Below are positions 8,213 to 49,616 of a DNA stretch of 62,877 nucleotides, in pieces. Made by a program: the position numbers and the translations under genes. Position 1 is the first letter of the stretch; every line of letters starts with the position of its first letter. The stretch is from Blastocatellia bacterium. Its GTDB lineage: Bacteria; Acidobacteriota; Blastocatellia; Chloracidobacteriales; JADJPF01. The notes below the pieces were generated by a model. The model was not told the DNA's origin. It was given only the letters and a program-made list of their open reading frames with translations, and made no database searches. Location: contig JBDIBI010000015.1 of NCBI GenBank assembly GCA_039812885.1, forward strand, positions 1-62,877, given 5' to 3'.

Positions 8213-9451
8213 ATGGCATATTTATCAGACTTAAAATTAGCAATAGGAAATCTTCAAACCCATAAATTACGCACTTTTCTAACTATGTTAGGCATGATTT
8301 TTGGAGTTGGGGCTGTAATAGCAATGCTTTCCATTGGTGCAGGTGCAGAACAAGAAAGCTTACGTATTATTGACACTATGGGAGTGCGTAATATTATAGT
8401 AAAGGATAAAGAGTTTAAGGACGAAGATTTAAAGAAAATCAGAGAAACATCTCTAGGTTTATCACTAAGAGATGTTCAAGCAATTCAATCTGTAACTCCA
8501 CAATTAGAAACCTATTCAGCTAAAAAGAAGGTTAAAACTTTTCAAATATTTTCTTTTTCTGGGAAAGCAGATGATTCAAATGTTCTTGGTGTAAGCCCTA
8601 CGTATTTTAGATTAGCTAAATATAATTTATTAGAGGGGGGCTTTTTTTCTGAAATAGATGAGAAAAACTATGAACAATTTTGTGTAATAGGTTCAAGAGT
8701 TAGGCAAAAGCTTTTTAACAAAGTTTCCCCTATAGGTAAACAAATTAAAATCAATAAGTTATGGTTTACAGTTATTGGAGTTTTAACCGATAATAATTTA
8801 GGCAAAGATGAATTTGAAGGTGTTAAACTACAAGACTTTAGCAATGATATTTATATTCCTATCACAACAGCACTTAAGAAATTTGATCTTAAGCGTCTAG
8901 AATCTGAACTAGATGAGCTTATTTTAAGTGTTAAAACAACAGATACACTTAAGGCAAGTGCTGTGCTTATCAATCAAGTAATAGTTAATACTCATAACAA
9001 AGCTGAAGATTTTTCCATAGTGCTTCCTCGTGAGTTATTAGAACAAAATCAAAAAACCCAAAACATTTTTAACATTGTAATGAGTTGTATTGCTGGCATT
9101 GCGCTTTTAGTAGGTGGTATAGGAATCATGAATATTATGCTAGCAAATATTCTAGAACGAACTCGTGAAATAGGCATTCGCCGAGCTATTGGAGCACGTA
9201 GGCGAGATATAATGCTGCAATTTCTTATGGAAGCTCTGACAATAAGCTTATCTGGTGGAATTTTAGGTATAGTCTTTGGCTTTGGAGCATCTCGTTTAGT
9301 AGCTATTTATGCTGATTGGACAACAGTTGTAACTAGCACTTCAATTATTATGTCTTTTGGTGTATCAGCTAGTGTAGGGTTGATTTTTGGAATTTACCCA
9401 GCTATTACAGCATCCCGTTTAAACCCAATAGATGCACTACGTTATGAATAG
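8213..9451 (+). CDS. ABC-transporter permease of the MacB/FtsX family (MacB-like periplasmic domain plus FtsX 4-TM domain), with no ATPase domain
   Basis: N-terminal transmembrane helix LRTFLTMLGMIFGVGAVIAML, a periplasmic domain of about 200 aa, then a C-terminal FtsX domain (IGIRRAIGARRRDIMLQFLMEAL). There is no Walker A or B motif in this ORF or adjacent to it. Confidence 0.75.
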   Translation: MAYLSDLKLAIGNLQTHKLRTFLTMLGMIFGVGAVIAMLSIGAGAEQESLRIIDTMGVRNIIVKDKEFKDEDLKKIRETSLGLSLRDVQAIQSVTPQLETYSAKKKVKTFQIFSFSGKADDSNVLGVSPTYFRLAKYNLLEGGFFSEIDEKNYEQFCVIGSRVRQKLFNKVSPIGKQIKINKLWFTVIGVLTDNNLGKDEFEGVKLQDFSNDIYIPITTALKKFDLKRLESELDELILSVKTTDTLKASAVLINQVIVNTHNKAEDFSIVLPRELLEQNQKTQNIFNIVMSCIAGIALLVGGIGIMNIMLANILERTREIGIRRAIGARRRDIMLQFLMEALTISLSGGILGIVFGFGASRLVAIYADWTTVVTSTSIIMSFGVSASVGLIFGIYPAITASRLNPIDALRYE

Positions 9452-9531
9452 AAAACAGAAACTCCTAATCTAAACAGCATTTCTATTTTCTATTTAGATT
9501 AGGAGTAAATCTAGTAAAAAAACCTAAGGAG

Positions 9532-10632
9532 TTATTGTACTGCCAACATACGATCTAAAGCTACTCTAGCCCAATGAGCAACTGTTTCTGGAACTTTGAT
9601 TTGATTAACGATTGTACCAGCTTTTAAGTTATCCAATGCCCAAAGAATATTTTCTGGAGCAATACGAAACATAGTTGAACACATGCAAAGATCTGGAGCA
9701 AGTAATCTAACAAAACGATCTGGATATTCATTCTTTAAGCGGTTTACTAGGTTGACCTCTGTTCCAACTGCCCATTGGCTACCTACAGGACTATTAGCAA
9801 TAGTCTTAATAATATATTCTGTTGAACCAACAAAATCAGCTTTTTGCACTACACCCCAAGAACACTCAGGATGAACTAATACATTAATTCCAGGATGTTC
9901 TTTTCTTACTTCATCAACATGCCAAGGTTGGAAACGTGCATGTACAGAGCAATGCCCTTTCCATAAGATAATCTTAGCTTTCTCTAATGCTTCTGGAGTA
10001 TTTCCACCTAATTCTTGATATGGATCCCAAACCACCATATCATCTAAAGAAACCCCTTTAGCATAAGCGGTATTGCGTCCTAAGTGTTGATCTGGAAAGA
10101 AGAAAATCTTTTCTTTTTGTCCCCAAGCCCAATCAAAAATGCCTTTAGCATTAGAAGAAGTACAAACAGCTCCACTTCTTTCTCCACAAAAAGCTTTTAC
10201 TGCTGCTGTAGAGTTCATATAAGTAATAGGCAACACAGAGTTAATCCCCAAATCATCTAACTCATCCCAAGCAGCTTCTACTTGCTCTATCGTAGCCATA
10301 TCAGCCATTGAACAACCTGCTGCTAAATCAGGCAAAATAACTTTTTGATGTGGTTTGCTTAGAATATCTGCGGATTCAGCCATAAAATGCACACCACAAA
10401 AAACTATAAATTCAGCAGATCTTTGTGATGCCATCTCTGAGAGCTTAAAAGAATCTCCTCGTAAATCTGAATGGCAAATCACATCATCACGTTGATAGTG
10501 ATGTCCTAAAATGACAAGCTGTTGACCTAACTCACGACGTATTGCTTCTATTCTTTGACCTAATTCTGGTTGATTAATACTAAAATAGGCTTCGAAAGGA
10601 CGTGCAACTCGTTTTAATTGTGCTACTTGCAT
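9532..10632 (-). CDS. nadA: Quinolinate synthase NadA
   Basis: 366 aa NadA family with conserved Cys ligands and HFMAESADI-like motifs. It is the correct length for NadA. Confidence 0.8.
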   Translation of the reverse strand: MQVAQLKRVARPFEAYFSINQPELGQRIEAIRRELGQQLVILGHHYQRDDVICHSDLRGDSFKLSEMASQRSAEFIVFCGVHFMAESADILSKPHQKVILPDLAAGCSMADMATIEQVEAAWDELDDLGINSVLPITYMNSTAAVKAFCGERSGAVCTSSNAKGIFDWAWGQKEKIFFFPDQHLGRNTAYAKGVSLDDMVVWDPYQELGGNTPEALEKAKIILWKGHCSVHARFQPWHVDEVRKEHPGINVLVHPECSWGVVQKADFVGSTEYIIKTIANSPVGSQWAVGTEVNLVNRLKNEYPDRFVRLLAPDLCMCSTMFRIAPENILWALDNLKAGTIVNQIKVPETVAHWARVALDRMLAVQ

Positions 10633-14022: not shown

Positions 14023-14029
14023 CCCAATC

Positions 14030-14058
14030 AGCCTGAAGCAAAAATTTTGCTTCAGGCT
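14030..14058 (+). terminator. Hairpin downstream of the aminotransferase, a candidate intrinsic terminator
   Basis: agcctgaagc (14030-14039) pairs with gcttcaggct (14049-14058), a perfect 10-bp stem around an A/T loop. There is no strong U-tract after the stem, so this call is weak. Confidence 0.35.
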
Positions 14059-14103
14059 ACAATACATAATTCAACTTATTTTTAAGAAAGTTCAGTATTA
14101 TCT

Positions 14104-15335: not shown

Positions 15336-18300
15336 TTGTTACTTATGAAAGCTAGGCTAACTATACTAATAGCTCTATTTATTGCTGCGTTATCTTTTCC
15401 ACTGCTAAAACCTCAAGCTTATCTGCTTAACTCAAAAGATGCTGATAGAAAAGCCGTTTCTCAGTGGCTCAAAGCTCGTCTAAAAGCTCAAATGGCAGGA
15501 AATAGCTCCGAATTATGGCAAAGAGAAATACCTAAAGATTCCTCTTCTAAAACCTCTAAACATTCAAAAACTCTTAAAAACTTTCCGGTTATCAGACAAA
15601 ATTTATTTAATTTATTTCCTAACACACAAATTGATTTTTTTAATTCTTTGGAAAGTGATTTGTTTAATCAAACAACACAAGAAGCAATAGTAGCAGGAAA
15701 TGAAAACATTCAACTTAATGATCCAAATCAAGAATCTGGCTCAAGAGTACAAAACAACACCTCTAGTGCAGTTAGTGGTAACAACATAGTAGTGGCCTAC
15801 AATGACATAGGTACAGAAATTGGAGCCGTTAGTTACTCTAATGATAATGGCGTAAACTGGAAGACTACGCATATACCTCAAGTTCCCGGCGGTAGAAACT
15901 TTGGAAGTGGTGTAGTAGCAGCTAGTGGTAAAACCTTTTATTATACTGGATTAGGGGTTAATAGCATTGGAGTTTCTGCTATATTTATTTCCCGTTCTAC
16001 CGATGCTGGACAAACTTGGAGCGTTCCAAGTTTTATTGCTGTTCCACTTAGTAATAATTCTTTTCAAGACAAGCCTTGGATTGCTGTAGATACAACCAAC
16101 ACAGTTACAGGAGGTAATGTATATGTTGGTTGGACTGATTTTACAATTACAGGTATAAACAACGGCTCTAAAATTGTTTGTGCGGTTTCTAATGATGGAG
16201 GCTTAAGCTTTTCCCCTCCTGTTACAGTATTTTCTGTTGATCCTTCTGTTAATGTTCAAGGAGTTACAATTGCTATTGGAGCTAAAGGAGAAGTAAATCT
16301 TGCTTGGGGAAATGATTCTGTATCAGGAATTACTTTTTCACGCTCTACTGATGGTGGACAAACCTTTTCTAGTCCAGTAATTGCTGCCAAAATTAAAACT
16401 TATGAGCTACTAGGAACAATACTTAATAGTCATTTTTCAGTTAATGGTCTTCCTAGTTTAGCTGTTGATAACAGTTCTTCTGCAACTCAAGGAAATATTT
16501 ATGTAACATTTAATGCGCCATCTACAAGCAATCCACAGGATTTAGCAGATGTTTTTCTAGCTCGCTCTACAGATCAAGGGATAAGTTGGAGTGAACTTAT
16601 AAAGGTCAATGATGATAAAACTTCCACAGACCAATTTATGCCATCTGTTGCTGTAACTATAGATGGTACGGTTGGAGTTATGTGGTATGACCGTCGCAAT
16701 GACTCTTTATACAATGGTATGTTAGATGTTTATGCAACAACTTCAACCGATGGTGGAAAGTCATTTAACCCTAGTGTACGCATCAGTACAGCGAATTGGG
16801 GAGTACTTACTACTCCAATTGGAATACGTAGTAATTATCATGGTGATTACAATCAAATAAGTGCATTGACTAATCAAGCAGGGTTTTTCTTTAACTGGGG
16901 AGATGATCGTAGTGGTAAAGATCCTGATGTATATGGCTTAAAACTACTATCTCCACTATCTAATGCTAATAATTTTGCAATGTCTCCAATTACTCCATCT
17001 CAAACAATTGTAGCTGGGCAAAAAGCAGAATTTTTATTACAGCTACTCAATAACACAAGGACTATTAATATAGTTGCAAATTCTGATAGTGATACAATTA
17101 ATTTTGAGTTTGAAAATCGAGGTCAGCAAATTGTAGTACGGCCTCGAACTAGTGCTACAACACCAGTTGGAACTCATCCAATAAATGTAACGGTTACAAA
17201 TGCTAGTGGAGTTAAAACCTCTATAACATTGCGATTAAATGTTCTAGCACAACAAAACTTTCCTAGTTTACCAATAAATATTTCCCAATCTGTAAGCCAA
17301 AGCATTGAGCCACATACAGCCATTGATCAGCAAGGAACAATGACTGCTGTTTGGGTTGACAATACAACTAGAAATTTTCGTGTTTATCTATCGCGTTCCA
17401 TAAACAATGGAAATTCTTTCTCTCCTCAAATAGATATTTCAAAAAGTGATAACTTAAGTATTAACCCAAAAGTGGCAGTTGGCCCAGATAAAGTCATTCA
17501 TGTGATTTGGCAAGAATGCCCTGATGATTCTTGTCAAGTGATGTATAGCCGTTCTACAGATCAAGGAAGCAGTTTTTCTAAACCTAAGCTTATATCTCAG
17601 GATATAGAGTTTTCTGAGCTTCCAAACATTATTACTAACCCTAACGGTGAAGTAGTTATTTTTTGGGATGGAGCAAGAACTTTAAGTGGAGCTAAATTTG
17701 AGGTTTTTGCTAGTAAATCTAATGATAGTGGGGAGCGTTTTTCATTTCCAACTTCTTTAATTAGTGACAGTGCAAGAAATCTTTTTACTACAGCATCCAC
17801 AAGTGATGGAAAAGGTAATAGTTACTTAGCTTATGAAAGTTGTAAAAATGGCAATTGTCGCATTGAGTTTAAGCGTTCTAGCAATGGATTTGATAGCTTT
17901 ACAGATGGAGCAATCGCTTCTGGAGATTTAAGTTTTGCCATTCGCCCAAGTTTAAGTACATCTGGAAATGGTGTTGTACAAGTTGCTATGACTGTAGCTT
18001 TGGAGGGTCAAGGAAATCGCTTTGAAATTTTCCAAGCAAATTCATTTAACAATGGAGCAAGTTTTAGTTCACCTAAAAATATTTCTAAAAGTGTTCAAAC
18101 TTCCAATGACGCAAGTGTTCTAGCTATAAATCAACAAGTCTATGTAGCTTGGAGAGATTTATCTTCTGGAAATCCAGATATTTTCTTAGCTAAATCCACA
18201 GACCAAGGAAATAGCTTTTCACCTGCAATCAATGTAACTAGTAATAATACTATTTCAGTAATTCCAACTTTAATTAGTGATTCAGCTAATCGTGTATATC

Positions 18301-18908
18301 TTTCTTATCAAGATGAGTTAAATGGAAATGATGATATTTATTATCTTAGAGTAGATGGAACTCCACTTCCAACGACACTTGATAACTTTTCACCTACTAG
18401 TGGGCCAGTTGGCACAACCATAACAATTACAGGTCAAGAGCTAGCGCAAACAACTGCGGTTAGTATTGCAGGAGTAGCAGCTAAATTCTTTTTCTCTAAA
18501 CCTACAGAAATTTCTGTTGTTGTTCCTGATGGAGCTAAAACTGGAGTTATTTCCCTTACTACAACTAGTGGAACTATAACTAGCAAAGATTCTTTTACAG
18601 TAGTAACACCAATAATCAATATAATTAGTCCATTAGGTGGCGGAGTTTTAAGAGGCGGAAATGATTTTATCATCAAATGGCAAGTTCAAGGTGTTGAACC
18701 AGCTAGCTTTGATTTATTGCTTTCAACAGATGGTGGAGCAACGTTCTCTATGCCTATAGCAATGAATTTATCTGCAAGTGATAGAATGTTTACTTGGGCA
18801 GTTCCTAAAATGAAAGTAAAAATGGCTCGTATACAGTTAGTTACACGTACTAGTAATGGAGTAAGTTTTTTAACTAATAGTAATACTTTTAAGATTAAAG
18901 CCAAGTAA
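15336..18908 (+). CDS. Large secreted BNR/Asp-box repeat protein (sialidase-like beta-propeller fold) with a C-terminal IPT/TIG-like Ig domain
   Basis: Signal peptide. At least 10 Asp-box motifs S-x-D-x-G-x-[ST]-[WF] (STDAGQTW, SNDGGLSF, STDGGQTF, STDQGISW, STDGGKSF, STDQGSSF, SNDSGERF, STDQGNSF, STDGGATF). C-terminal FSPTSGPVGTTITITG resembles IPT/TIG. Confidence 0.65.
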   Translation: MLLMKARLTILIALFIAALSFPLLKPQAYLLNSKDADRKAVSQWLKARLKAQMAGNSSELWQREIPKDSSSKTSKHSKTLKNFPVIRQNLFNLFPNTQIDFFNSLESDLFNQTTQEAIVAGNENIQLNDPNQESGSRVQNNTSSAVSGNNIVVAYNDIGTEIGAVSYSNDNGVNWKTTHIPQVPGGRNFGSGVVAASGKTFYYTGLGVNSIGVSAIFISRSTDAGQTWSVPSFIAVPLSNNSFQDKPWIAVDTTNTVTGGNVYVGWTDFTITGINNGSKIVCAVSNDGGLSFSPPVTVFSVDPSVNVQGVTIAIGAKGEVNLAWGNDSVSGITFSRSTDGGQTFSSPVIAAKIKTYELLGTILNSHFSVNGLPSLAVDNSSSATQGNIYVTFNAPSTSNPQDLADVFLARSTDQGISWSELIKVNDDKTSTDQFMPSVAVTIDGTVGVMWYDRRNDSLYNGMLDVYATTSTDGGKSFNPSVRISTANWGVLTTPIGIRSNYHGDYNQISALTNQAGFFFNWGDDRSGKDPDVYGLKLLSPLSNANNFAMSPITPSQTIVAGQKAEFLLQLLNNTRTINIVANSDSDTINFEFENRGQQIVVRPRTSATTPVGTHPINVTVTNASGVKTSITLRLNVLAQQNFPSLPINISQSVSQSIEPHTAIDQQGTMTAVWVDNTTRNFRVYLSRSINNGNSFSPQIDISKSDNLSINPKVAVGPDKVIHVIWQECPDDSCQVMYSRSTDQGSSFSKPKLISQDIEFSELPNIITNPNGEVVIFWDGARTLSGAKFEVFASKSNDSGERFSFPTSLISDSARNLFTTASTSDGKGNSYLAYESCKNGNCRIEFKRSSNGFDSFTDGAIASGDLSFAIRPSLSTSGNGVVQVAMTVALEGQGNRFEIFQANSFNNGASFSSPKNISKSVQTSNDASVLAINQQVYVAWRDLSSGNPDIFLAKSTDQGNSFSPAINVTSNNTISVIPTLISDSANRVYLSYQDELNGNDDIYYLRVDGTPLPTTLDNFSPTSGPVGTTITITGQELAQTTAVSIAGVAAKFFFSKPTEISVVVPDGAKTGVISLTTTSGTITSKDSFTVVTPIINIISPLGGGVLRGGNDFIIKWQVQGVEPASFDLLLSTDGGATFSMPIAMNLSASDRMFTWAVPKMKVKMARIQLVTRTSNGVSFLTNSNTFKIKAK

Positions 18909-18920
18909 TGTTTAACTTTG

Positions 18921-18950
18921 TAGGGGCAAAGAGTTTTGCCCCTATATTTA
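18921..18950. terminator. Hairpin between convergent genes, a probable bidirectional intrinsic terminator
   Basis: taggggcaaa (18921-18930) pairs with tttgccccta (18935-18944) around loop gagt. A T-rich run lies on the + side (tatttaatt) and an A/T-rich run on the - side. Confidence 0.5.
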
Positions 18951-18974
18951 ATTATCAACATTTCCTCAACTCAA

Positions 18975-20132
18975 CTAATTAATACTACCATAATTTGCTA
19001 AGGCCAAAGCATAAGCCATCCAAGCTTGAGACCAACGGAGATAAGATATTTTGTTAACTGAGTAACTAGATTTTTGAAAGTAGAAAAATCCTGATTTATC
19101 CAGCATATTTTTTATTGTCCAACCTAAAACTTTGTCTATATGTTGTTTATAATCAGGAATTAAATCTTTTAAGTACACAAAAGTAACTATAGCTTGTGCA
19201 GCAGAATGTATATCTATTGGATAAGTGTTATTGTGGTAATACTTAGGTGTACCATCATCAAGAAAAAAATTATCTAAATAGTATTTTAGACCTTTATTTA
19301 GAATAGATTGCCATTGCTGAGCTTCACAGTTTTGAATAACCACATTTAGTGAAACTAAATTAAAACCTGTGTGAAAACTATCAATCCAAGTTTGATTGCT
19401 AGCCATACCATATGGCCAAGAGCCATCCTGAGATTGCCTATTTACACTAAAACGAGCTGAAGCTATTGCAGCTTCAATTAACTCTATTTCATGAGTAAAC
19501 CTAGCAGTTCTAGCTAATAATTCTGAGCCTAACAAATTAGCATTATGGACTTGGCTTTTATCTAAAGGAGTATAGCTAAAACAAAACTCCTCTTTACCTT
19601 CACTTCTATTTAGATCTTGCAGTACAAATTGACAAGCAGAGCGTGCTGCTTCTAATGAACTAGGTTCTTTGAAAAGCTGATAGTGATCTAGCCAGGCTTG
19701 AGCAACAAAAGTTGTGCATACAATTGATGGAGTATTTTTAGGTACAAAAAAGGCTCGTGATTGCCAATCAAAGTTATATCCCCAACACATTCTCTCATCA
19801 TAACCTGGAGAGCGCAACGCCCATAATCTTTCTAATAATTCTTCTGCATCACGACGATATTTTTCTTGCTTTGTAGCCTGATAAGCACTTAGTAAAGCTC
19901 GAACAAACAAAGCTAAACCTTTAGGGTTTTCGCCCTTCTCTACACCTACTAAAGGCCGAAAATTTATTGGAGATCTTTTTATTACTTGAATTAAAGCAAT
20001 TCGCAAAAACTTAGAATTTGGCATTATTTGATAAAGAGAACTATTTAAACCATCATATGGGTCATAGCCCTGCCAATCTTCCTTACGACAATATTCTAAT
20101 AAATTATCAAAATGATCTTGATATATAAACAA
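18975..20132 (-). CDS. Hypothetical protein, possibly an (alpha/alpha)6-barrel enzyme of the N-acylglucosamine 2-epimerase / glycoside-hydrolase-like superfamily
   Basis: 385 aa with no signal peptide. Trp-rich repeated helical segments (WQGYDPYDG, CWGYNFDWQS, DGSWPYGM). Assigned by motif resemblance only, and the call is weak. Confidence 0.3.
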   Translation of the reverse strand: MFIYQDHFDNLLEYCRKEDWQGYDPYDGLNSSLYQIMPNSKFLRIALIQVIKRSPINFRPLVGVEKGENPKGLALFVRALLSAYQATKQEKYRRDAEELLERLWALRSPGYDERMCWGYNFDWQSRAFFVPKNTPSIVCTTFVAQAWLDHYQLFKEPSSLEAARSACQFVLQDLNRSEGKEEFCFSYTPLDKSQVHNANLLGSELLARTARFTHEIELIEAAIASARFSVNRQSQDGSWPYGMASNQTWIDSFHTGFNLVSLNVVIQNCEAQQWQSILNKGLKYYLDNFFLDDGTPKYYHNNTYPIDIHSAAQAIVTFVYLKDLIPDYKQHIDKVLGWTIKNMLDKSGFFYFQKSSYSVNKISYLRWSQAWMAYALALANYGSIN

Positions 20133-22592: not shown

Positions 22593-22638
22593 GTCAAAAT
22601 ACTTCTTTTGTAGTTATAAAAGATTAAATTTTAAGCCG

Positions 22639-23316
22639 CTAATTTTTATTTTTCTCTGTTGATTCTGTATCAAGTTCTTGTTTATCAGTTTGTGTTGGTT
22701 GATAAAAATAGTCTGTTAAACTTGAGTCATCATCAGATTTTACAACAGTTCCAGAAAGCAACCGAGTTCTAATTAACTCTATTTGAATATCACTAACTCT
22801 AATTTCATCAAGTATTTTTTGTTTTTCTACTTCTAATCGAGACTGTTCTGTTTTGATGCGATCTTTTTCATCTTCTACTTCTTTTCTAATTGCCTTTTCA
22901 CCATCACTACGGTTAAGAAAAGTTCTAGTTAGTAACTCGTTATCAATATTTTTAAGTCTAAAATCTAGTTGTGATTGGCGGGACGTTAAAATATTGAGTT
23001 GAGCCTCAATTGCAGCAAGTTTATCTTTTATTTTATCTGATCGTTCTTGCTCTATTTTGTAAAAAAGCAAGTCTGTAATTCTACGTTGCTGAGCTCCAAG
23101 TTTTCTAATTTCTTTTGTTAACTGGCGTATTTCTTTTGAAAGCTCTACTGCATTTGGTTGGTCAATTTCAGATTTTGGCTTAGCAGTAGTTTCTGTGCGT
23201 TGGGCAATAGGAGCTTGGCGAGGCTGTTGTAAAGCAAAAAGCCAAACATTACCATCAATAAATGGACAACAAAACATTAACACTACAGCGGCAACCAACA
23301 GTTTTCTTCTGAGCAT
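22639..23316 (-). CDS. Secreted or periplasmic coiled-coil protein, hypothetical
   Basis: Signal peptide MLRRKLLVAAVVLMFCCPF followed by heptad-rich charged sequence. No enzymatic motif. The start is taken at the second Met of the ORF-track protein. Confidence 0.4.
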   Translation of the reverse strand: MLRRKLLVAAVVLMFCCPFIDGNVWLFALQQPRQAPIAQRTETTAKPKSEIDQPNAVELSKEIRQLTKEIRKLGAQQRRITDLLFYKIEQERSDKIKDKLAAIEAQLNILTSRQSQLDFRLKNIDNELLTRTFLNRSDGEKAIRKEVEDEKDRIKTEQSRLEVEKQKILDEIRVSDIQIELIRTRLLSGTVVKSDDDSSLTDYFYQPTQTDKQELDTESTEKNKN

Positions 23317-23538
23317 CACCTTATCCTCCCAAGACCATAAGAGCAATAAATAAAGCCTCTATAGATTTCAACCATTGAAAAGCAAAAAAGTTCCCAAAAT
23401 ATTTAGCTAATAAGGAAAATTTTTCCATAATTTCTGCAAGCTATTAGTTACCAAGTCTTGCAGTTGGCTTGCAATTAAACTATCTTAAAGGGTTGTTGAT
23501 TTTTATAGATTTTAACTAAAGGCTGGAAACTAAAATCC

Positions 23539-26178
23539 ATGACTGGACATGAAATTAGACAAAAATTTTTAGATTTTTTTGCTTCTAACCAACATCGCAT
23601 TGTTAAAAGCTCTCCTCTTTTACCTGCAAACGACCCTACCCTGCTTTTTGCTAATGCAGGAATGAACCAATTTAAGGATGTATTCTTAGGTTCAGAGTTA
23701 CGTGATTACACTCGCGCAACTACATCTCAAAAGTGTATTCGTGCTGGTGGTAAACATAATGATTTAGAAGAAGTAGGAAAAACTGCTCGTCATCATACTT
23801 TTTTTGAAATGTTAGGCAATTTTTCTTTTGGAGATTATTTTAAAGAAGAAGCCATCGTATTTTCTTGGGATCTACTCCTAAAAGAATTTAAACTCCCATT
23901 AAATAGACTTTGGTTTACAGTCTACAAAGATGATGATGAAGCTTTAGAGCTTTGGAAAAAGGTAGGAGCACCAGCCGATCGGATTTTAAAATTTGCTGAA
24001 AAAGATAATTTTTGGCAAATGGGTGATACTGGCCCTTGTGGCCCTTGTTCAGAAATACACTACTATATGGGCGATGACCTTTCTCTACAACGTGCAGATA
24101 TGGTCAACGGGCCAGGCGACGACATCATGGAAATTTGGAATCTAGTCTTTATGCAATTTAACCGTGATGCAAGCAAAACACTTCACCCTCTACCTAAACC
24201 TTCTGTTGATACAGGAATGGGTTTAGAACGTATCAGTGCTGTACTTCAAGGTGTTAAAAGCAATTATGATACAGATTTAATTAAACCAATCCTTCATTTT
24301 ATAAGTGATCTATGCAAACAAGAATATGTAGCAAATACTCCTGAAGGAATGTCAATGAGAGTACTTGCTGATCATGCTCGTGCTACAGCATTTGCTATTG
24401 CAGATGGGATTTTACCAGGAAACCTTGGGCGCAATTATGTATTACGCAAAATTATGCGTAGAGCTATTTATCATGGCAGCCATAGATTAGGTTTATCAGA
24501 TATTTTCTTCCACAAAATTATAGATTTTGTTACCCATATGATGGGAAATGCTTATCCAGAGCTTTTTACAGCTCGTAATTTTACAGGTCAAATTGTTGAA
24601 GGTGAAGAACGACGTTTCCGCAACACTCTAAAAACTTGTTTACCTAAATTCCATGATTTAGTAGAACGTCATGCTGGTGAAATGCCTCCATATAAAGAAC
24701 TTGCTCGTCTTTATGATACTTTTGGTATGCCTCAAGATTTAATGAAGGTAATGTTAGAGCAACAAAATCATCAATGGTCAGAAGAGGCTTTTGAACAAGC
24801 ATTAGAAGAACTTCAAAAAACAACTATGGTAGCCTGTGCAACTCCAGCACAAGCTAAAACTAAACCTATTTATCAACAACTCTCTGAACGCATTAAGACA
24901 ACTTTTACCGGCTATCAAGGCACAGAACTTCTTGGAGCTAAGGTTGTAGCAATACTAGCTAAAGATCAAGAAATTAACGAGTTAAGTGCAACTACAAGTG
25001 AGGCTGAAGGAGAAGTAATTTTAGACAGAACTCCTTTTTATGCTGAATCTGGTGGTCAAATTGGAGACACAGGAATCTTTGAAAATGAGTCTACTTTAGT
25101 AAAAGTACTTGATACTTATGCTTCTATGCCAGGTCTCTCAATTCACAAAGTAAAAGTTGAAAAAGGCTCTCTAAAAGTAGGGGATGAAGTTGCTGCTTTG
25201 GTTGATGATGAACGCCGTCGCCGCATTATGCTCAATCATACATCTACACATTTGCTACATGCAGCATTAAAGGAAGTGTTAGGACAACACATAAAACAAG
25301 CTGGTAGTCTTGTTGCTCCTGATCGCTTACGATTTGACTTTACACATTATGCAGCACTAACAGATTCAGAAATTGCTGAGTTAGAACGTTTGGTAAATGA
25401 ACAAATCCAACATAATGCACAACTTTCTAAAGAGGAAATGGAGCTAGAAAAAGCTCTTGCTTCAGGTGCAGTAGCATTATTTGGAGAAAAATATTCTAGC
25501 AAAGTTAGAGTTATAAGCGTTCCCGGTTTTAGTACAGAACTTTGTGGCGGAACTCACGTATCAGCAACAGGAGACATTGGTTTATTTAAGATAGTCTCTG
25601 ATAGTTCGGTAGCTGCTGGAATTCGCCGCATTGAAGCAATTACTGGCCCTGCGGCAGTAGAACGCTACCAACAAGCTTATAATTTACTTGATGGTTTATC
25701 TGTAGCCTTCAAATCTAGTTGGAACGATATTCCATCACAAATTGAACGGTTGCAATCTGCGCTTAAAGCGGCAACATCACAAATTGATGGCTTAAAGCTC
25801 AAATTAGCAACTCAATCAGCTTCTAATGCTCTTGAACAAGCTAAAACTGTTGGTAATGTAAAAGTTTTAGCTCAAAAAGTTGAAGATTTAGATCGCAGTG
25901 GAATGCGCCAACTAGCTGATACACTTAGCCAAAAACTTGGTTCAAGTGTAGTTGTTTTAGGCTTGGCAGAAGAAGGTAAAGCAGCACTTTTGGTTAGAGT
26001 ATCTAATGACTTAACCAAGCAGTTTAATGCAGGTAAAATAGTTAACGAATTAGCTACTATAGTTGGAGGAAGAGGTGGTGGAAAACCTGATCTAGCAGAA
26101 GCAGGAGGAAAAGACCCTTCTAAACTTGGGGAAGCTTTAACTGCTAGTTATGAACTTGTAGAAAGAATGTCAAACTAA
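23539..26178 (+). CDS. alaS: Alanine--tRNA ligase AlaS
   Basis: 879 aa. Conserved AlaS N-terminal catalytic motifs (FANAGMNQFK, GDYFKEEAI), editing-domain HxxxH zinc motifs (HTSTHLLHAALK) and a C-terminal DHHA1-like GGRGGGKPDLA. Confidence 0.9.
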   Translation: MTGHEIRQKFLDFFASNQHRIVKSSPLLPANDPTLLFANAGMNQFKDVFLGSELRDYTRATTSQKCIRAGGKHNDLEEVGKTARHHTFFEMLGNFSFGDYFKEEAIVFSWDLLLKEFKLPLNRLWFTVYKDDDEALELWKKVGAPADRILKFAEKDNFWQMGDTGPCGPCSEIHYYMGDDLSLQRADMVNGPGDDIMEIWNLVFMQFNRDASKTLHPLPKPSVDTGMGLERISAVLQGVKSNYDTDLIKPILHFISDLCKQEYVANTPEGMSMRVLADHARATAFAIADGILPGNLGRNYVLRKIMRRAIYHGSHRLGLSDIFFHKIIDFVTHMMGNAYPELFTARNFTGQIVEGEERRFRNTLKTCLPKFHDLVERHAGEMPPYKELARLYDTFGMPQDLMKVMLEQQNHQWSEEAFEQALEELQKTTMVACATPAQAKTKPIYQQLSERIKTTFTGYQGTELLGAKVVAILAKDQEINELSATTSEAEGEVILDRTPFYAESGGQIGDTGIFENESTLVKVLDTYASMPGLSIHKVKVEKGSLKVGDEVAALVDDERRRRIMLNHTSTHLLHAALKEVLGQHIKQAGSLVAPDRLRFDFTHYAALTDSEIAELERLVNEQIQHNAQLSKEEMELEKALASGAVALFGEKYSSKVRVISVPGFSTELCGGTHVSATGDIGLFKIVSDSSVAAGIRRIEAITGPAAVERYQQAYNLLDGLSVAFKSSWNDIPSQIERLQSALKAATSQIDGLKLKLATQSASNALEQAKTVGNVKVLAQKVEDLDRSGMRQLADTLSQKLGSSVVVLGLAEEGKAALLVRVSNDLTKQFNAGKIVNELATIVGGRGGGKPDLAEAGGKDPSKLGEALTASYELVERMSN

Positions 26179-26189
26179 CCCTCAAAAGC

Positions 26190-26526
26190 TCTACTTGATC
26201 AACCTAGGGTTAGTTTAACACTAACTCTAGGTTTCCCACTTAAATAAACCTTCTCTTCAAAATCATAACTAGTCAACTACCTACCCGTAAACGGGTAGGC
26301 TTGAGGGCGTAAAAGCCAACAAGCCCAGTTGAGCAGACTAAGCTTAGAAATAAGCTACGTTACGAAGAGAGTTAAAGAACGCACCCTAGAATGCGAGCCA
26401 GTTCTAGGCTCTGTAACTTCTAAGTTAAACAGACGTAAGGGTATAAAGTCAGTGCCTAGAAGAAATACTGATTCGTAACATTGTCGAGGCAAACATAACC
26501 ATAGAAATATGAGGTTTTTACTAACT
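26190..26526 (+). ncRNA. Candidate omega-RNA of the IscB locus: a structured non-coding region immediately upstream of iscB in the same orientation
   Basis: About 330 nt with no credible ORF, packed with stem-loops. (1) 26202-26232 is a 12-bp stem with one G·U pair. (2) CCTACCCG-TAAA-CGGGTAGG at 26280-26299 is a perfect 8-bp stem. (3) ggctt/aagcc at 26298-26317. (4) AGCTTA-GAAA-TAAGCT at 26341-26356. (5) CCTAGAA(26385-26391)/TTCTAGG(26402-26408). In addition, cctagaag recurs at 26454-26461, giving alternative, pseudoknot-like pairing. Its position relative to iscB matches the known organisation of omega-RNA followed by iscB. Confidence 0.55.
26202..26232 (+). other. Imperfect palindromic hairpin just after the alaS stop: either the alaS terminator or the IS200/605-like left-end subterminal hairpin
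   Basis: ACCTAGGGTTAG-tttaaca-CTAACTCTAGGT gives 12 pairs including one G·U. It is followed by tttccc, which is not a strong U-tract. Confidence 0.4.
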
Positions 26527-27822
26527 ATGCAAAAAGTATTTGTACTAGATACCAAGGGAAAACAACTAGATATGTGTCATCCTGGACAAGCTAGAAGGCT
26601 TTTGAAAGCTGGACAGGCAGCAGTGTATAAGCGTTTTCCTTTTACAATTAAACTTAAACGAGAAGTATGTAAGGCAGACTTACAAAACTATCAACTAAAG
26701 TTAGATCCTGGCAGTAAAAAAACAGGTGTTGCAATTGTTAACCAAGAAACAGGAGAAGTAGTCTTTGCTGCTAAAATAGAACATCGTGGACAAACTATTA
26801 AAGTTAGTTTAGATAATCGTCGTGAAGTTCGTCGTAATAGGCGAAACAGAAAGACTCGTTATCGTAAGTCTAGGTTTCATAATAGAACTCGCTCTAAAGG
26901 TTGGTTAGCACCTTCTCTACTGAGTAGAGTAGCTAATGTAGAAACTTGGGTTAGAAAGCTAATACAGTTGTGCCCAATAAGTGGAATTAGCTTAGAACTT
27001 GTTAAATTTGATACTCAGTTAATGCAAAATGCTGAAATTAAAGGGGTTCAATACCAACAAGGGACTTTAGCTGGTTATGAGCTGCGCGAGTATCTACTGG
27101 AGAAGTACAAGCGTAAATGTGCTTATTGCAAGAAAGAAAATATCCCTTTACAGATAGAGCATATAGTTCCAAAAAGCAGAGGTGGTAGTAATAGAGTGAC
27201 AAACCTAACTTTGGCTTGCGAAAAATGCAACTTAAAGAAAGCTAATAAAACTGCTACAGAATTTGGTTATCCTGAAGTTCAAGCTCAAGCTAAATTACCA
27301 TTAAAAGATGCTGCTGCTGTAAATAGTACAAGATGGGAAATATACAATAGGCTAAAGGGATTTGCTTTGCCAATAGAAACAGGTAGTGGTGGACTAACTA
27401 AGTTTAATCGTGCTAGCCAAAACTTACCTAAGACACATTACATAGATGCAGCATGTGTTGGAATAAGCACACCATTACTAAAACTAGATAAAGTACAAGT
27501 ACTAGAGATAAAAGCTACAGGACAGGGCACTCGCCAAATGTGTAAAGTAGATAAAATAGGATTTCCTCGCACTAGCGCAAAAACAGCAAAGAAGTTTTTT
27601 GGTTTTCAAACAGGAGACATAGTTAAAGCAATTGTTACTAGTGGTAAAAAAATTGGTACTTATATTGGTAAAGTTGCGGTTCGTGCTACGGGCTTTTTTG
27701 CCATTATCACTACTTCTGGCAAGGTCGATTCCATTAAGCATAACTTTTGCAAACTACTCTTTGCTTGTGATGGTTACTCTTATTCTTACTCTATATCAAA
27801 TGGCAATTCCTCCACAGCCTAA
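26509..27822 (+). CDS. iscB: IscB, an OMEGA-system RNA-guided endonuclease (Cas9 ancestor). It has a PLMP-like N-domain, split RuvC, an Arg-rich bridge helix, an HNH zinc finger and a C-terminal TAM-interaction-like domain
   Basis: The 437-aa ORF probably starts in reality at the ATG at 26527 (MQKVFVLD...). N-domain motifs KRFPFTIKL. RuvC-I LKLDPGSKKTGVAIV with Asp66 (nt 26704-26706). Bridge helix RREVRRNRRNRKTRYRKSRFHNRTR. RuvC-II ISLELVKFD with Glu163 (26995-26997). HNH CAYC...IEHIVPKSRGGSNRVTNLTLACEKCN with His218 (27160-27162) and CxxC...CxxC. RuvC-III THYIDAACVG with His310 and Asp313 (27436-27447). The whole order matches characterised IscB proteins such as OgeuIscB. Confidence 0.85.
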   Translation: MRFLLTMQKVFVLDTKGKQLDMCHPGQARRLLKAGQAAVYKRFPFTIKLKREVCKADLQNYQLKLDPGSKKTGVAIVNQETGEVVFAAKIEHRGQTIKVSLDNRREVRRNRRNRKTRYRKSRFHNRTRSKGWLAPSLLSRVANVETWVRKLIQLCPISGISLELVKFDTQLMQNAEIKGVQYQQGTLAGYELREYLLEKYKRKCAYCKKENIPLQIEHIVPKSRGGSNRVTNLTLACEKCNLKKANKTATEFGYPEVQAQAKLPLKDAAAVNSTRWEIYNRLKGFALPIETGSGGLTKFNRASQNLPKTHYIDAACVGISTPLLKLDKVQVLEIKATGQGTRQMCKVDKIGFPRTSAKTAKKFFGFQTGDIVKAIVTSGKKIGTYIGKVAVRATGFFAIITTSGKVDSIKHNFCKLLFACDGYSYSYSISNGNSSTA

Positions 27823-27832
27823 AGTCTGTGGA
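27811..27832 (+). other. Hairpin overlapping the iscB stop codon, a candidate right-end structure of the element or a terminator
   Basis: TCCACAG(27811-27817)-cctaaagt-CTGTGGA(27826-27832) is a perfect 7-bp stem with no U-tract. It lies 25 nt before the kinase-gene ATG. Confidence 0.35.
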
Positions 27833-27856
27833 CTCCTTGCCGAAGATTGTTGAATA

Positions 27857-30800
27857 ATGAGCAATAATATGATGGATCCAATAATTGGGCGCGCATTAGG
27901 GGATTTTCTAGTTAAGGAAAAGCTAGGAGAAGGTGGATTTGGAGCTGTTTATAAAGCAAGTCAAATTACTTTAGACCGTGAAGCTGTAGTTAAAATTCTT
28001 CATACTCGCCATCGTACTGACATAAACATAATAGAACGTTTTAAGCGAGAAGCCCGTCTAGCTTCGCGTTTAGAACATCCATATTGTGCTCATATTTATT
28101 CATTTGGAGCTGAAGAGGATGGATTATTATGGATTGCGATGGAATTAGTTGATGGAACTCCATTAAATGAAATAGTTAAATCCCAAGGCCCATTACCATT
28201 AGAACGCTTTATCCCTTTGTTAGATAAAATTTGTGAAGTTGTTCATACTGCACATGAAACAGGCATAGTTCATCGAGATATTAAACCTGCTAATGTTATG
28301 GTTATTTCTAGAGCTGGACGACTTTTACCTAAACTCCTAGATTTTGGTATTGCTAAGGATCTATCCCTTCAAAATGGCTCATTTGATAAAACTAGTGAAC
28401 TATCTACAGATAAATTACCTGATTTAATAAATGAATTTGATAGCTTAAAAAACACCCTTAGAAAAAACTCTTTGCAACTTGCTGAATCCAAACATCCAAC
28501 ATTATTTGTTAATACTTTGTTAGCTAAAGAAACTGATGAACAAAACCTTGACCTAGCTACAAATAAAATTACTCATCTTGTAAAAACACATGGAATAATG
28601 GGCTCACCTAGCTATATGGCTCCTGAACAGTGGAAAAATGCTGTTACAGCAGATGCTCGTAGTGATATTTATGCCTTAGGAGTTACTGCATATGAACTGC
28701 TTACGGGTAAATTGCCTTTCAAAGGCTCTATGAATACATTGATGAATGCACATCTTAACAAGCCTATTCCAACTTTAGCTACAACATTTGCAGAAAAGTT
28801 TGATCCAATAATTGCTAAAGCTATGGCTAAAAATGCTGAAGATCGCTATCAAACAGCTTTAGAGTTTGCTAAAGATTTCCGTGAAGCAGCTAATTTTACT
28901 CAAGAACAAATAATCCTACCTCATCTAGATGAAATACTTAAAGAAAATTTATTAACCAATGCCCCAAAACCTTTAGCTGATATGGTTGCAAGCCTTGTAG
29001 CGGCTCGCAATGCTTATCAATTTAGAGATAGATTATTTTTGGTGTTGCATGTTTTAATACGGTACATAAGCATATTAACCCTAGCAAGCTATGCAAGTAC
29101 TATTACAAATGAGCAAACTTCTGAGTTAATTACTAAAACAATAGCTAATTTACGTCATAATAGTTTAACTGATTTAGAATGGTTAGAACTTTCGAGAGAA
29201 CTATGCAGACCTTTTGCTAAAAAAAGAGATGCTTTTCCTATCCCAGAACTAATAACTGTATTTTTTGCAATAGATAGTGAACATCTTAACTTTCTAAATG
29301 AAACATTTCTTAAGCTCTTGCAAATGCAAGATGAAATAAATTCCAATGCTTCACTAAAAGAAGAGCAGCTAGTAACTTTACTGGCTCATTTCTTAACTAA
29401 ACTTACTTATTTATTAAAAGCTACAGCTTGGTTAAGTGATTATTACTTAGTACTTCCAGAAGCCAATAGAGCAACTAAATGGATGGGAATAGCTAAAGAG
29501 ATAAGTTCAATAAGTTTAAAAACCAGCAATATAACTAACCAAAAGGCTATTTTGGTAGATGCACAAGGGCATTTTGTCTTAACACTTTGGCCATTAATAG
29601 AAATAGTTGAACCTACCCCAGGAATGTCATTAGAAGTTTTTCTACTAGAGCGCAAAGGTCGTAATTCAGCAAAATTAGTTTCATTTCCTGATGGATTTGA
29701 AATAGAAACTGAAGCTCCTTGGGACTGGTTAAAACAACACTTTATTACAGATGAAGAAAAGGCAAAAACAGCAAAGCTGATAGAAAAATCTCCATATCTA
29801 GGTTTAGCTACCTTTTCAGCAAAAGACTCAAATTTGTTTTTTGGGCGAGAAAAAGAAACAGAAAACTTTCTAAATCGTTTGCGTATTCAACCATTACTTG
29901 CAGTTGTAGGGCCATCAGGAGCAGGAAAAAGTTCTTTTATTCAAGCTGGTGTTGTGGCTGGGCTTGATGAGAATTGGCAAGTTATAACAGTTCGCCCTGG
30001 ACTTTCCCCTATTGCTACATTAGCTAGCAAACTTTCAAAAGTAGGTATTGAGCTAGTAGATTTAAAAATTAAATTACAAAAAGATATAAATTTCCTAGGT
30101 AATAGCTTACGTCAATTTGCTAGTGAGCAAAATAGTCAAATCTTATTAATAATAGATCAATTTGAAGAAATCCTAACACTCTGTTTAGACAAGCAGGAAC
30201 AACAACTCTATGTAGAAGCAATAGTTTTAGCCGCACGCTCTGAAGAAGATCCTATTAGAGTTGTACTAACAATGAGAGATGATTTTTTGGTAAAAGCTAA
30301 AAAGCTAAAAGCTCTAAAAGATCGTCTTAACCAAGCATTAGAAATACTCACAACTCCAGCATCTACAGAACTTATTAAAATCCTTACAGAACCAGCTAGA
30401 CAAGCAGGCTATGAGTTTGAAGATCAAGAACTTCCTGTAGAAATTGTAAATGAAGTTACAGAACAAACTAGTGCCTTACCATTACTAGCATTTACAGCAG
30501 CAAAACTTTGGCAACAACGAGACAAAGAGTTTAAGCAACTCAGGCGCAGAAGTTATGAAGCAATGGGAGGTGTAGGAGGTGCATTAGCACGTCATGCTGA
30601 AAGTATGTTGTTGCAAATGACTCATATAGAACAATCTCTTGTTCGTGAAGCATTTCGTCATTTGGTCACAAGTGAAGGAACAAGAGCCGTTCTAACTCGT
30701 CCAGAGATATTGCAATTGTTAGGCAAAAGTGGCGAAAGTGAAGCTGTATTAGAAAAATTAATTTCCGCTAGGCTTCTAGTTGCAACTGAAGGAGAAAAAG

Positions 30801-49529: not shown

Positions 49530-49557
49530 GAAATTAGAATCATTATGTTAAAATCAC

Positions 49558-49590
49558 AGGCGACTCTTTTGGGTCGCCTTTTTATTTATC
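49558..49590 (+). terminator. Rho-independent terminator of ftsH
   Basis: AGGCGAC(49558-49564)-tcttttgg-GTCGCCT(49573-49579) is followed by TTTTTATTTAT. Confidence 0.7.
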
Positions 49591-49616
49591 AACTCTAAAT
49601 TTTTCTAGGTGAAAAA

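Follow-up and report, generated by a model that had tools for sequence, protein, structure and literature searches.

An ISC2-type IscB element between alaS and a large protein kinase gene in a Blastocatellia contig

ISC2 transposons, represented by ISC2-1_KR of Ktedonobacter racemifer and by ISC2-1_MS and ISC2-2_MS of Marinobacter (PMC4810608), carry a single iscB gene of ~430 amino acids (aa) within ~1.6 kb and have no tnpA. They start with 5'-GTCA, contain subterminal imperfect hairpins at both ends, and their 3' end abuts a 4-bp NTGR (PMC4810608). These features recur, the last of them with a deviating first base, in an element that we analyzed in a 62,877-nucleotide stretch of DNA from a Blastocatellia bacterium (contig JBDIBI010000015.1, assembly GCA_039812885.1; the whole stretch is referred to as the window), in which iscB lies between alaS and the gene of a 1778-aa Ser/Thr kinase. 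The differences concern the target, which is ATGA, GTGA or GTGG in the described ISC2 elements (PMC4810608) and TTGA here, and the host, which in this case is a low-GC, Blastocatellia-like acidobacterium (the G+C content of the window is 34%).

The IscB element of Geobacillus stearothermophilus, which belongs to the ISGst family (bioRxiv 10.1101/2023.03.14.532601), resembles the present one in being non-autonomous, in having its guide 5' of the RNA scaffold, in abutting the transposon-adjacent motif (TAM) with its left end and in sharing the orientation of the upstream gene. In that system, TnpA was shown to excise the element and the donor joint was shown to be cleaved, whereas here both steps are inferred, and the TAM position in the window is occupied by TTGAA. 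OgeuIscB and the other IscB–omega-RNA complexes of solved structure (PDB 7UTN, 7XHT, 9K30) contain homologous proteins (E = 1e-29 to 1e-38) and an omega-RNA of the HEARO type, although the best-scoring aligned stretch comprises query residues ~110–315 only. The motif recognized by OgeuIscB is NWRRNA (PMC12660989), and not NTGA. Elements of the IS605 type with TnpB, as well as PATE and REP elements mobilized by a Y1 TnpA, have in common with the present element the strand-specific subterminal hairpins, a short one-sided target motif, the absence of target duplication and the frequent loss of tnpA. In contrast to the TnpB elements, the nuclease here combines RuvC and HNH, the strand is opposite to that of tnpB, and the guide RNA is located 5' and not 3' of the gene (PMC4810608).

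Based on the results of our analysis, we consider it very probable (about 0.85) that the whole element is a single, intact insertion sequence of the IS200/IS605 superfamily, which encodes IscB, is of the ISC2 type and is non-autonomous, extending from 26272 to ~27849, and that the palindrome to its left belongs to the host flank. Delimited in this way, the element is ~1578 bp long and has the same orientation as alaS and the kinase gene, which would have been separated by a spacer of ~99 nt before the insertion. Judging by the sequence, its anatomy is that of the published family feature by feature, with the exception of the TTGA motif. The initial annotation had already described a transposase-less unit of the IS200/IS605 superfamily with iscB, and we likewise found no tnpA within its ends; the identification of alaS, iscB and the 1778-aa kinase gene agrees with the Pfam domains. 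What is mended is the extent of the unit (26272 to ~27849, and not 26195–27835), the sequence preceding iscB, which represents a guide RNA and not a spacer, and the left hairpin, which is assigned to alaS. The features of the locus are as follows:

23539–26178, plus strand: alaS (alanine-tRNA ligase), upstream host gene (Pfam tRNA-synt_2c, 9.9e-195; tRNA_SAD; DHHA1)
26201–26233, plus strand: left palindrome, host flank (inverted repeat; DNA and RNA fold)
26256–26271, plus strand: putative guide, TTCAAAATCATAACTA (position from the family rule; 16-nt length assumed by analogy)
26272–26499, plus strand: omega-RNA scaffold (Rfam HEARO, RF02033; cmscan), the first base of which is the transposon right end (RE), 5'-GTCA
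26280–26299, plus strand: subterminal hairpin on the omega-RNA side, CCTACCCGT aa ACGGGTAGG (perfect 9-bp arms)
26527–27822, plus strand: iscB, 431 aa (Pfam RRXRR, HNH_5, HNH)
27802–27841, plus strand: two-tier subterminal hairpin at the iscB-distal end, the transposon left end (LE) (fold, covariation, covariance model)
27842–27849, plus strand: terminal 8-nt spacer GAAGATTG, with 27849 as the putative last element base (alignment with the closest relatives)
27850–27854, plus strand: position of the target or transposon-adjacent motif, TTGAA, host sequence abutting the end (homologous position in relatives)
27857–33193, plus strand: gene of a Ser/Thr kinase–nSTAND1–WD40–FGE protein, 1778 aa (Pfam Pkinase; nSTAND1, 1.2e-100; WD40; FGE-sulfatase)

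Termini and target motif

The termini were placed by comparison with 160 related loci, obtained by scanning genome contigs and, separately, metagenome contigs; L087–L089 were added by look-ups of three closer IscB proteins (76–81% identity). Alignment of the loci by blastn revealed many pairs of related elements residing in unrelated flanks, including two 100%-identical copies of 1676 bp in Scytonema NIES-4073 (L005 and L006). In every inspected pair of copies from different sites, the match sets in precisely with GTCA(A/G)..., the position of base 1 in the HEARO model, and stops just past a terminal (A/G)TGA, 8–12 nt beyond a conserved hairpin. The window has GTCAAC at 26272, and the alignment with its closest relatives (68–81% protein identity) sets the ends at 26272 and 27849/27853. 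The 8-nt spacer between the outer stem of this hairpin and the NTGA motif is shared by L001 (GGGGATTT), L002 (GAAGAACT) and L087 (GGGGATCT), where it is followed by GTGA or ATGA.

For the non-autonomous ISC elements, 5'-GTCA termini, subterminal hairpins and the targets N|ATGA, GT|GA and GT|GG have been described (Kapitonov et al. 2016, PMC4810608), while the TAM of GstIscB is TTCAT, that is, ATGAA on the iscB strand (bioRxiv 10.1101/2023.03.14.532601). At the level of sequence, the ends of the copy pairs reproduce these published termini and targets and fit the GstIscB TAM. The proposal that the palindrome after alaS forms one end of the element was not borne out: the similarity starts at GTCA 26272, 38 nt downstream of it, and the hairpin that belongs to this end is located at 26280–26299. 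The span of 26195–27835 must likewise be replaced by the one given by copies and relatives. An end at 27856, with ATGAG of the kinase start as the target motif, was considered and rejected, since the 8-nt spacer of the relatives puts the motif at 27850–27853.

Over 64 unique sites, the motif position is occupied by ATGA in 47 cases, GTGA in 8, ATGG in 6 and TTGA in 1, the last being the window only. The window motif retains the TGA core and has T as its first base. This can mean that the base preceding TGA is free to vary in the subfamily, or else that the site in the window has mutated and the copy is beyond excision and homing.

Several observations weigh against our interpretation. TTGA is present at no other of the 64 sites, and only one copy of the element was found within the 62.9-kb window. 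The search for an empty site was without success, and the ends are placed by homology, with an uncertainty of ~4 nt. With these ends, the uninserted junction of alaS and the kinase gene is predicted to read ...CATAACTA|TTGAATAATG..., and an exact-pattern scan of metagenome contigs for the rebuilt junction (AAAATCATAACTA-N0-14-ATGAGCAATAATATG) returned 0 matches. Orthologues of the kinase N-terminus reach at most 61% identity and so offer no orthologous junction; in the five relatives with 81–84% AlaS identity, another gene stands after alaS, and the kinase is found in none. Finally, efficient termination at the hairpin after alaS would leave little guide-bearing omega-RNA.

Omega-RNA, nuclease and mobility

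The HEARO family of Rfam is the omega-RNA of IscB. The match to this family (RF02033) on the plus strand at 26272–26499 covers model positions 1–211 of 211 with 136.4 bits (gathering score 83, E = 2e-29) and is the sole HEARO copy in the window; both this RNA and its guide went unrecognized in the initial annotation. The guide of an IscB element is the flank located 5' of the scaffold, outside the transposon, and the omega-RNA is bounded by the right end; hence, its production relies on transcription coming in from the upstream gene, the orientation of which the elements share (bioRxiv 10.1101/2023.03.14.532601). By analogy, the guide here would be 26256–26271 (TTCAAAATCATAACTA), or more generally the 16–20 nt before 26272, and the stretch just 5' of GTCA indeed varies between copies at different sites. 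A guide in this position lies between the alaS hairpin and the terminus, and a guide-bearing omega-RNA would therefore require read-through of that hairpin.

The mechanically called iscB open reading frame (ORF) starts at 26509 (437 aa); the start conserved in relatives is the ATG at 26527 (within a conserved ACTATG), and a public 431-aa protein (P0121) is identical to the window IscB. A conserved GAGGT is located ~12 nt upstream of this ATG. The protein contains the Pfam domains RRXRR (2.8e-68, residues 10–185) and HNH_5/HNH (residues 204–252). Solved IscB chains of the PDB match it at E = 1e-38 to 1e-25 (1.9e-38 for TbaIscB and 3.4e-29 for OgeuIscB), and its LDPG, IEHIVP...N and HYIDA motifs align with the solved structures. 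The predicted nuclease therefore looks intact. With 431 aa and a simple motif of the NTGA type, this compact IscB can be added to the candidates for screening in genome editing.

The nearest relatives of the window IscB, with 64–81% identity, come from metagenome-assembled genomes (MAGs) labelled Blastocatellia, Clostridia, Poribacteria and Planctomycetota, and the cyanobacterial copies are 50–59% identical to it. Their spread over phyla suggests horizontal spread or mis-binned contigs. The best match in the genome collection, among the entries of which the host genome is not included, has 75% identity.

No tnpA was found inside the element (26272–27849), which holds only the omega-RNA and iscB, along with antisense ORFs of 66 and 79 aa, and no Y1 transposase was found among the ten window ORFs of 134–239 aa that were scanned. 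About 1.5% of iscB genes are located near tnpA (bioRxiv 10.1101/2023.03.14.532601), and ISC elements are defined as non-autonomous (PMC4810608); the tnpA-less state is normal for iscB. The Logan contig L081 (SRR24111727), an independent assembly, corresponds to window positions 21754–26553 at 99.75% and contains the same insertion. It stops at window position 26553, inside iscB and 44 nt after the ATG at 26509. Such a break is typical of a repeat or of strain polymorphism and may hint at more than one copy. A look-up of the contig index for further copies returned neither the 437-aa ORF product nor P0121, although the cluster listing assigns the identical IscB to two public contigs.

From the published behavior of the family, a cycle of the following kind can be proposed. 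Transcription out of alaS, passing through the U-poor hairpin, would make an omega-RNA, the 5' guide of which derives from the 16–20 flanking nt upstream of 26272. With a TnpA of the Y1 type supplied from another locus, both end hairpins would be recognized on the same strand of the DNA and the element excised. Resealing would leave an empty site, ...TTCAAAATCATAACTA|TTGAA..., as the substrate to be cut by IscB with its omega-RNA, after which the element would be regained through recombination with a sister copy.

The copy may instead be fixed, an alternative raised in the initial annotation, or immobilized, or on its way to domestication: the TTGA motif, possibly together with a missing cognate TnpA, would block excision and cleavage, leaving the element as a passenger in an alaS–kinase unit. 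We regard this as unlikely, although worth serious consideration. Relatives do decay in place, as illustrated by L090 and L130, which are without the 3' arm of the left-end hairpin. In the window, the ORF, the catalytic motifs, the full-model omega-RNA (136 bits) and both end hairpins are intact, which argues for recent activity or selection. TTGA was found at one of the 64 unique sites, that of the window, but the first base of the motif is already A or G among the nearest relatives, and T may be tolerated as well. Fixation is also consistent with the identical insertion in a second sample (L081) and with the fact that no tnpA was detected in the 62.9-kb window (ten mid-size ORFs scanned); against it, the identical IscB on two public contigs may mean a second copy.

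Hairpins at the element ends and after alaS

Both palindromes to which attention had been drawn initially, at 26202–26232 and 27811–27832, are real and fold with z = -4.47 each. The right one is part of a two-tier structure. Its inner stem is a perfect 7-bp duplex (TCCACAG 27811–27817 / CTGTGGA 27826–27832) with an 8-nt loop that holds the iscB stop codon TAA (27820–27822), and it is enclosed by an outer 5-bp stem (GGCAA 27802–27806 / TTGCC 27837–27841), which overlaps the last codons of iscB. In folding as single-stranded DNA (ssDNA), none of 200 dinucleotide-preserving shuffles equals it. The 7-bp stem alone would be within chance, with 13 inverted repeats of at least 7 nt in these 1.75 kb; the hairpin is significant because it is conserved with covariation in relatives. 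Compensatory changes affect both the inner stem (CCACAG/CTGTGG, CCCGCG/CGTGGG, CTCCGG/CCGGAG) and the outer stem (GGCAA/TTGCC, CGCAA/TTGCG, GGCGA/TCGCC).

In a 12-sequence alignment of left ends with a hand-specified structure, the covariation amounts to 0.431; slid controls stay at or below 0.134, and this value is not attained by any of 500 shuffles. RNAalifold predicted no structure for this alignment. The covariance model built from it (R1) scores the window copy with 61.4 bits (E = 1.2e-14) and detects the motif directly after iscB in 41 genome and 38 metagenome loci. When 52 distinct sequences were aligned by fitting to the R1 model, which favors the structure, 78.7% of the cells pair versus 51.9% after shuffling, with both-side changes in 167 cells versus 58. 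The slid controls for these sequences give a covariation of at most 0.093 versus 0.516, and argue that the covariation signal of the left-end hairpin is real.

A hairpin is also found at the other end of the element, at 26280–26299, 8 nt inside the terminus. It has perfect 9-bp arms (DNA fold z = -4.02) and doubles as the first stem of the omega-RNA, since its arms pair in the HEARO alignment. Within each subfamily, both end hairpins share the loop type (short TAAA loops in some subfamilies, long hairpins of the GAGTAC type in others), as expected if one Y1 transposase reads both. By these comparative data, the right hairpin is a genuine subterminal end hairpin of the element. This is in line with the initial proposal, for which recurrence at other iscB copies had been named as the test, and the recurrence now comes with compensatory changes.

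It is very improbable that the two hairpins are ordinary terminators of alaS and iscB with no role in transposition. Both are located at gene ends, the genome uses strong hairpins after stop codons, often without a U-tract, and a T-run follows the left-end hairpin in some cyanobacterial relatives. However, in Acidobacteriota, in cyanobacteria and in MAGs with the labels Planctomycetota, Poribacteria and Clostridia, the right hairpin is conserved with both tiers and with a constant spacing to the end of the element, and its architecture recurs in the hairpin at the opposite end. The window copy continues into CCGAAGATTG, has no U-tract and was not flagged as terminator-like. In addition, roughly every second related element is placed directly at the start codon of a host gene read in the same direction, homologues of ftsZ and ruvA among them, and an efficient terminator would silence these genes.

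Some side observations concern the left-end hairpin. Extra R1 matches of 19–29 bits, several kb away from iscB, were obtained at L026:12509-12563(-), L005:10721-10775(-), L089:2704-2760(+), L009:10873-10936(-) and L064:2971-3029(+); these could be further elements, solo ends or PATE-like derivatives. At L090:1450-1500 and L130:3210-3260 (JGI Ga0075163 and Ga0075182), the 3' arm of the hairpin has been lost, and the sequences diverge after GGCCATAAATG. The IscB of these two loci is the closest to that of the window among the metagenome loci (80% identity), R1 misses its hairpin, and the copy looks like one decaying in place.

The left palindrome has arms of 14 nt (26201–26214 / 26220–26233, 93% complementary) around a loop of 5 nt. 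It is separated by 22 nt from the stop codon of alaS, which ends at 26178, and lies 38 nt upstream of the element terminus. Its fold is strong both as ssDNA (200 shuffles, none as good) and as RNA (-18.7 kcal/mol). The region 26179–26271, including the palindrome, gave no alignment with the flanks of the closest related elements. A repeated REP- or PATE-like unit was considered and rejected, as the window contains no second copy of the palindrome. Hairpins of -17.7 kcal/mol or lower within 70 nt of the stop were found at 7 of 44 gene ends of the window, alaS among them, while only 2% of random 70-mers reach -18. Relatives without iscB also have a strong stem-loop soon after the alaS stop, and these sequences are not homologous. 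Only TTT follows the stem in the window, and the consensus terminator scan did not flag it. Most likely, the left palindrome is the native 3' hairpin of alaS, which could serve as a leaky terminator or as an mRNA-stabilizing stem.

Long perfect hairpins at other gene ends of the window (9452–9531, 18909–18974, 14023–14060 and 49530–49600) are mostly without a U-tract, and two of them are common to convergent gene pairs (8213..9451 with 9532..10632, and 15336..18908 with 18975..20132). Hairpins poor in U thus seem to mark gene ends as a rule in this organism.

That the two palindromes (26202–26232 and 27811–27832) are themselves the TnpA-recognized subterminal hairpins of an element of ~26195–27835 is hardly credible, even though both are real and thermodynamically significant and subterminal imperfect hairpins are indeed a feature of IS200/IS605 and ISC elements (PMC4810608), because the flanks of copy pairs diverge directly upstream of GTCA, 26179–26271 is unalignable with the flanks of the closest relatives, the architectural partner of the right hairpin is 26280–26299, the element runs past 27835 to ~27849, and the left palindrome falls in the class of host gene-end hairpins.

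The kinase gene, start codons and neighborhood

Homologues of the kinase conserve DPIIGR.LGDF near their N-termini, preceded by 5–11 residues, which fits a start at 27857. This ATG is located 7 nt past the presumed insertion point; the 34 nt that separate it from the iscB stop consist of the element end and the target motif, and the insertion parts the gene by 1.58 kb from its former upstream sequence. The right hairpin ends 24 nt before the ATG, with no GGAG, GAGG or AGGA in between, in agreement with the earlier remark that it precedes the start by about 25 nt and that there is no obvious Shine-Dalgarno (SD) sequence. The possibility had also been raised that the element supplies or occludes the promoter or the 5' untranslated region of the kinase gene. 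This suspicion is well founded, and more so than stated initially, since with an end ~7 nt before the ATG the whole proximal leader is element sequence. Scans for promoter and terminator consensus sequences around the element gave nothing better than shuffles, so that the TGGACT-18-AATAAT match at 27829–27858 is no evidence, and no convincing promoter was found in 27823–27856. Given this negative result and an element end 7 nt before the ATG, the most likely source of kinase transcripts is read-through from alaS and iscB, the left end of the element serving as leader. Thus, a signaling gene of 1778 aa would now have a transposon end as leader, and its expression is probably tied to the transcription of alaS and iscB.

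The position of the element next to a start codon was also surveyed across the 64 unique insertion sites, 59 of which were evaluable. An ORF of at least 60 codons starts at the terminal NTG at 32 of these 59 sites, compared with 26% of the other same-strand [AG]TG[AG] sites in the same loci (binomial p = 3e-6). For ORFs of at least 100 codons starting at the terminal ATG or GTG, the proportion is 29/59 evaluable independent sites, versus 0.8% of random positions; examples include L080:7367, L045:7336, L026:7342, L079:6073, L087:6329 and L088:2946. When ten such ORFs were scanned against Pfam, the domain of seven began at profile positions 1–4 within the first residues. The starts (residue to profile position) were 1 to 1 for RuvA_N, 5 to 2 for CTP_transf_3 (KdsB-like), 3 to 4 for PfkB, 6 to 3 for CoA_binding (SucD-like) and 6 to 2 for an AI-2E transporter; profile position 1 of ABC_tran was at residue 25, and FtsZ was complete, with an N-terminal extension. 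Many of the ORFs thus represent true N-termini of genes. The source annotations of L087 and L088 call the downstream gene from the terminal ATG. At nine further sites, including the window, a gene starts 7–55 nt downstream.

Of 63 elements, 23 (37%) have a GGAG, GAGG or AGGA 4–18 nt upstream of the terminal NTG, versus 8% of random positions; the window has only GAAGA. Many left ends contain an SD-like purine run (GGAGG, GGGGG, GAGGG) 5–9 nt upstream of the terminal ATG, and it is this run that makes up the 3' arm of the outer stem. A conserved TTCCTCC between the outer and inner 5' arms of the left-end hairpin resembles an anti-Shine-Dalgarno sequence.

These data allow a tentative proposal, to which we give somewhat less than even odds: in this IscB lineage, elements would persist wedged between the ribosome-binding site and the ATG of a host gene, providing their own end as leader, with the host gene expressed by read-through and re-initiation and transcription of the guide assured. 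If the start-codon pattern is such a design, it would explain how essential genes survive a homing element whose motif contains ATG, and why IscB elements share the orientation of their neighbors. The pattern could also be a simple retention bias, in which intragenic insertions are lost and the motif happens to contain ATG. The T-run that follows the hairpin in some cyanobacterial left ends calls for caution with the start-codon proposal. The association with start codons is not mentioned in Kapitonov 2016, in Meers 2023, in a 2026 OMEGA review or in the results of keyword literature searches.

The AlaS of the window is closest to sequences of Blastocatellia and Acidobacteriota, with named matches of at most 84% identity and one identical Logan sequence. 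The initial description of the neighborhood as conserved and housekeeping applies to its upstream part only: the genes upstream of alaS, which encode an outer-membrane protein and a 222–243-aa ORF, are syntenic in relatives, whereas downstream of alaS the five retrieved relatives have other genes (for BNR/sortilin in one, for Uma2 in several and for peptidase M28 in one). By this comparison of gene order, the alaS–kinase junction appears specific to this lineage. The relatives with a Uma2-family endonuclease gene after alaS are several Blastocatellia among L083–L086 and L170. L002, in which a Blastocatellia IscB is followed by a Uma2-like C-terminal fragment, was considered as an orthologous insertion after alaS and discarded, as it has no similarity to the alaS neighborhoods. 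A different setting was observed in L088/L091 (JACCDR012044120.1), where an element with a 78%-identical IscB lies among RusA, Rad52/Rad22 and AAA genes, in what looks like a prophage-like recombination module.

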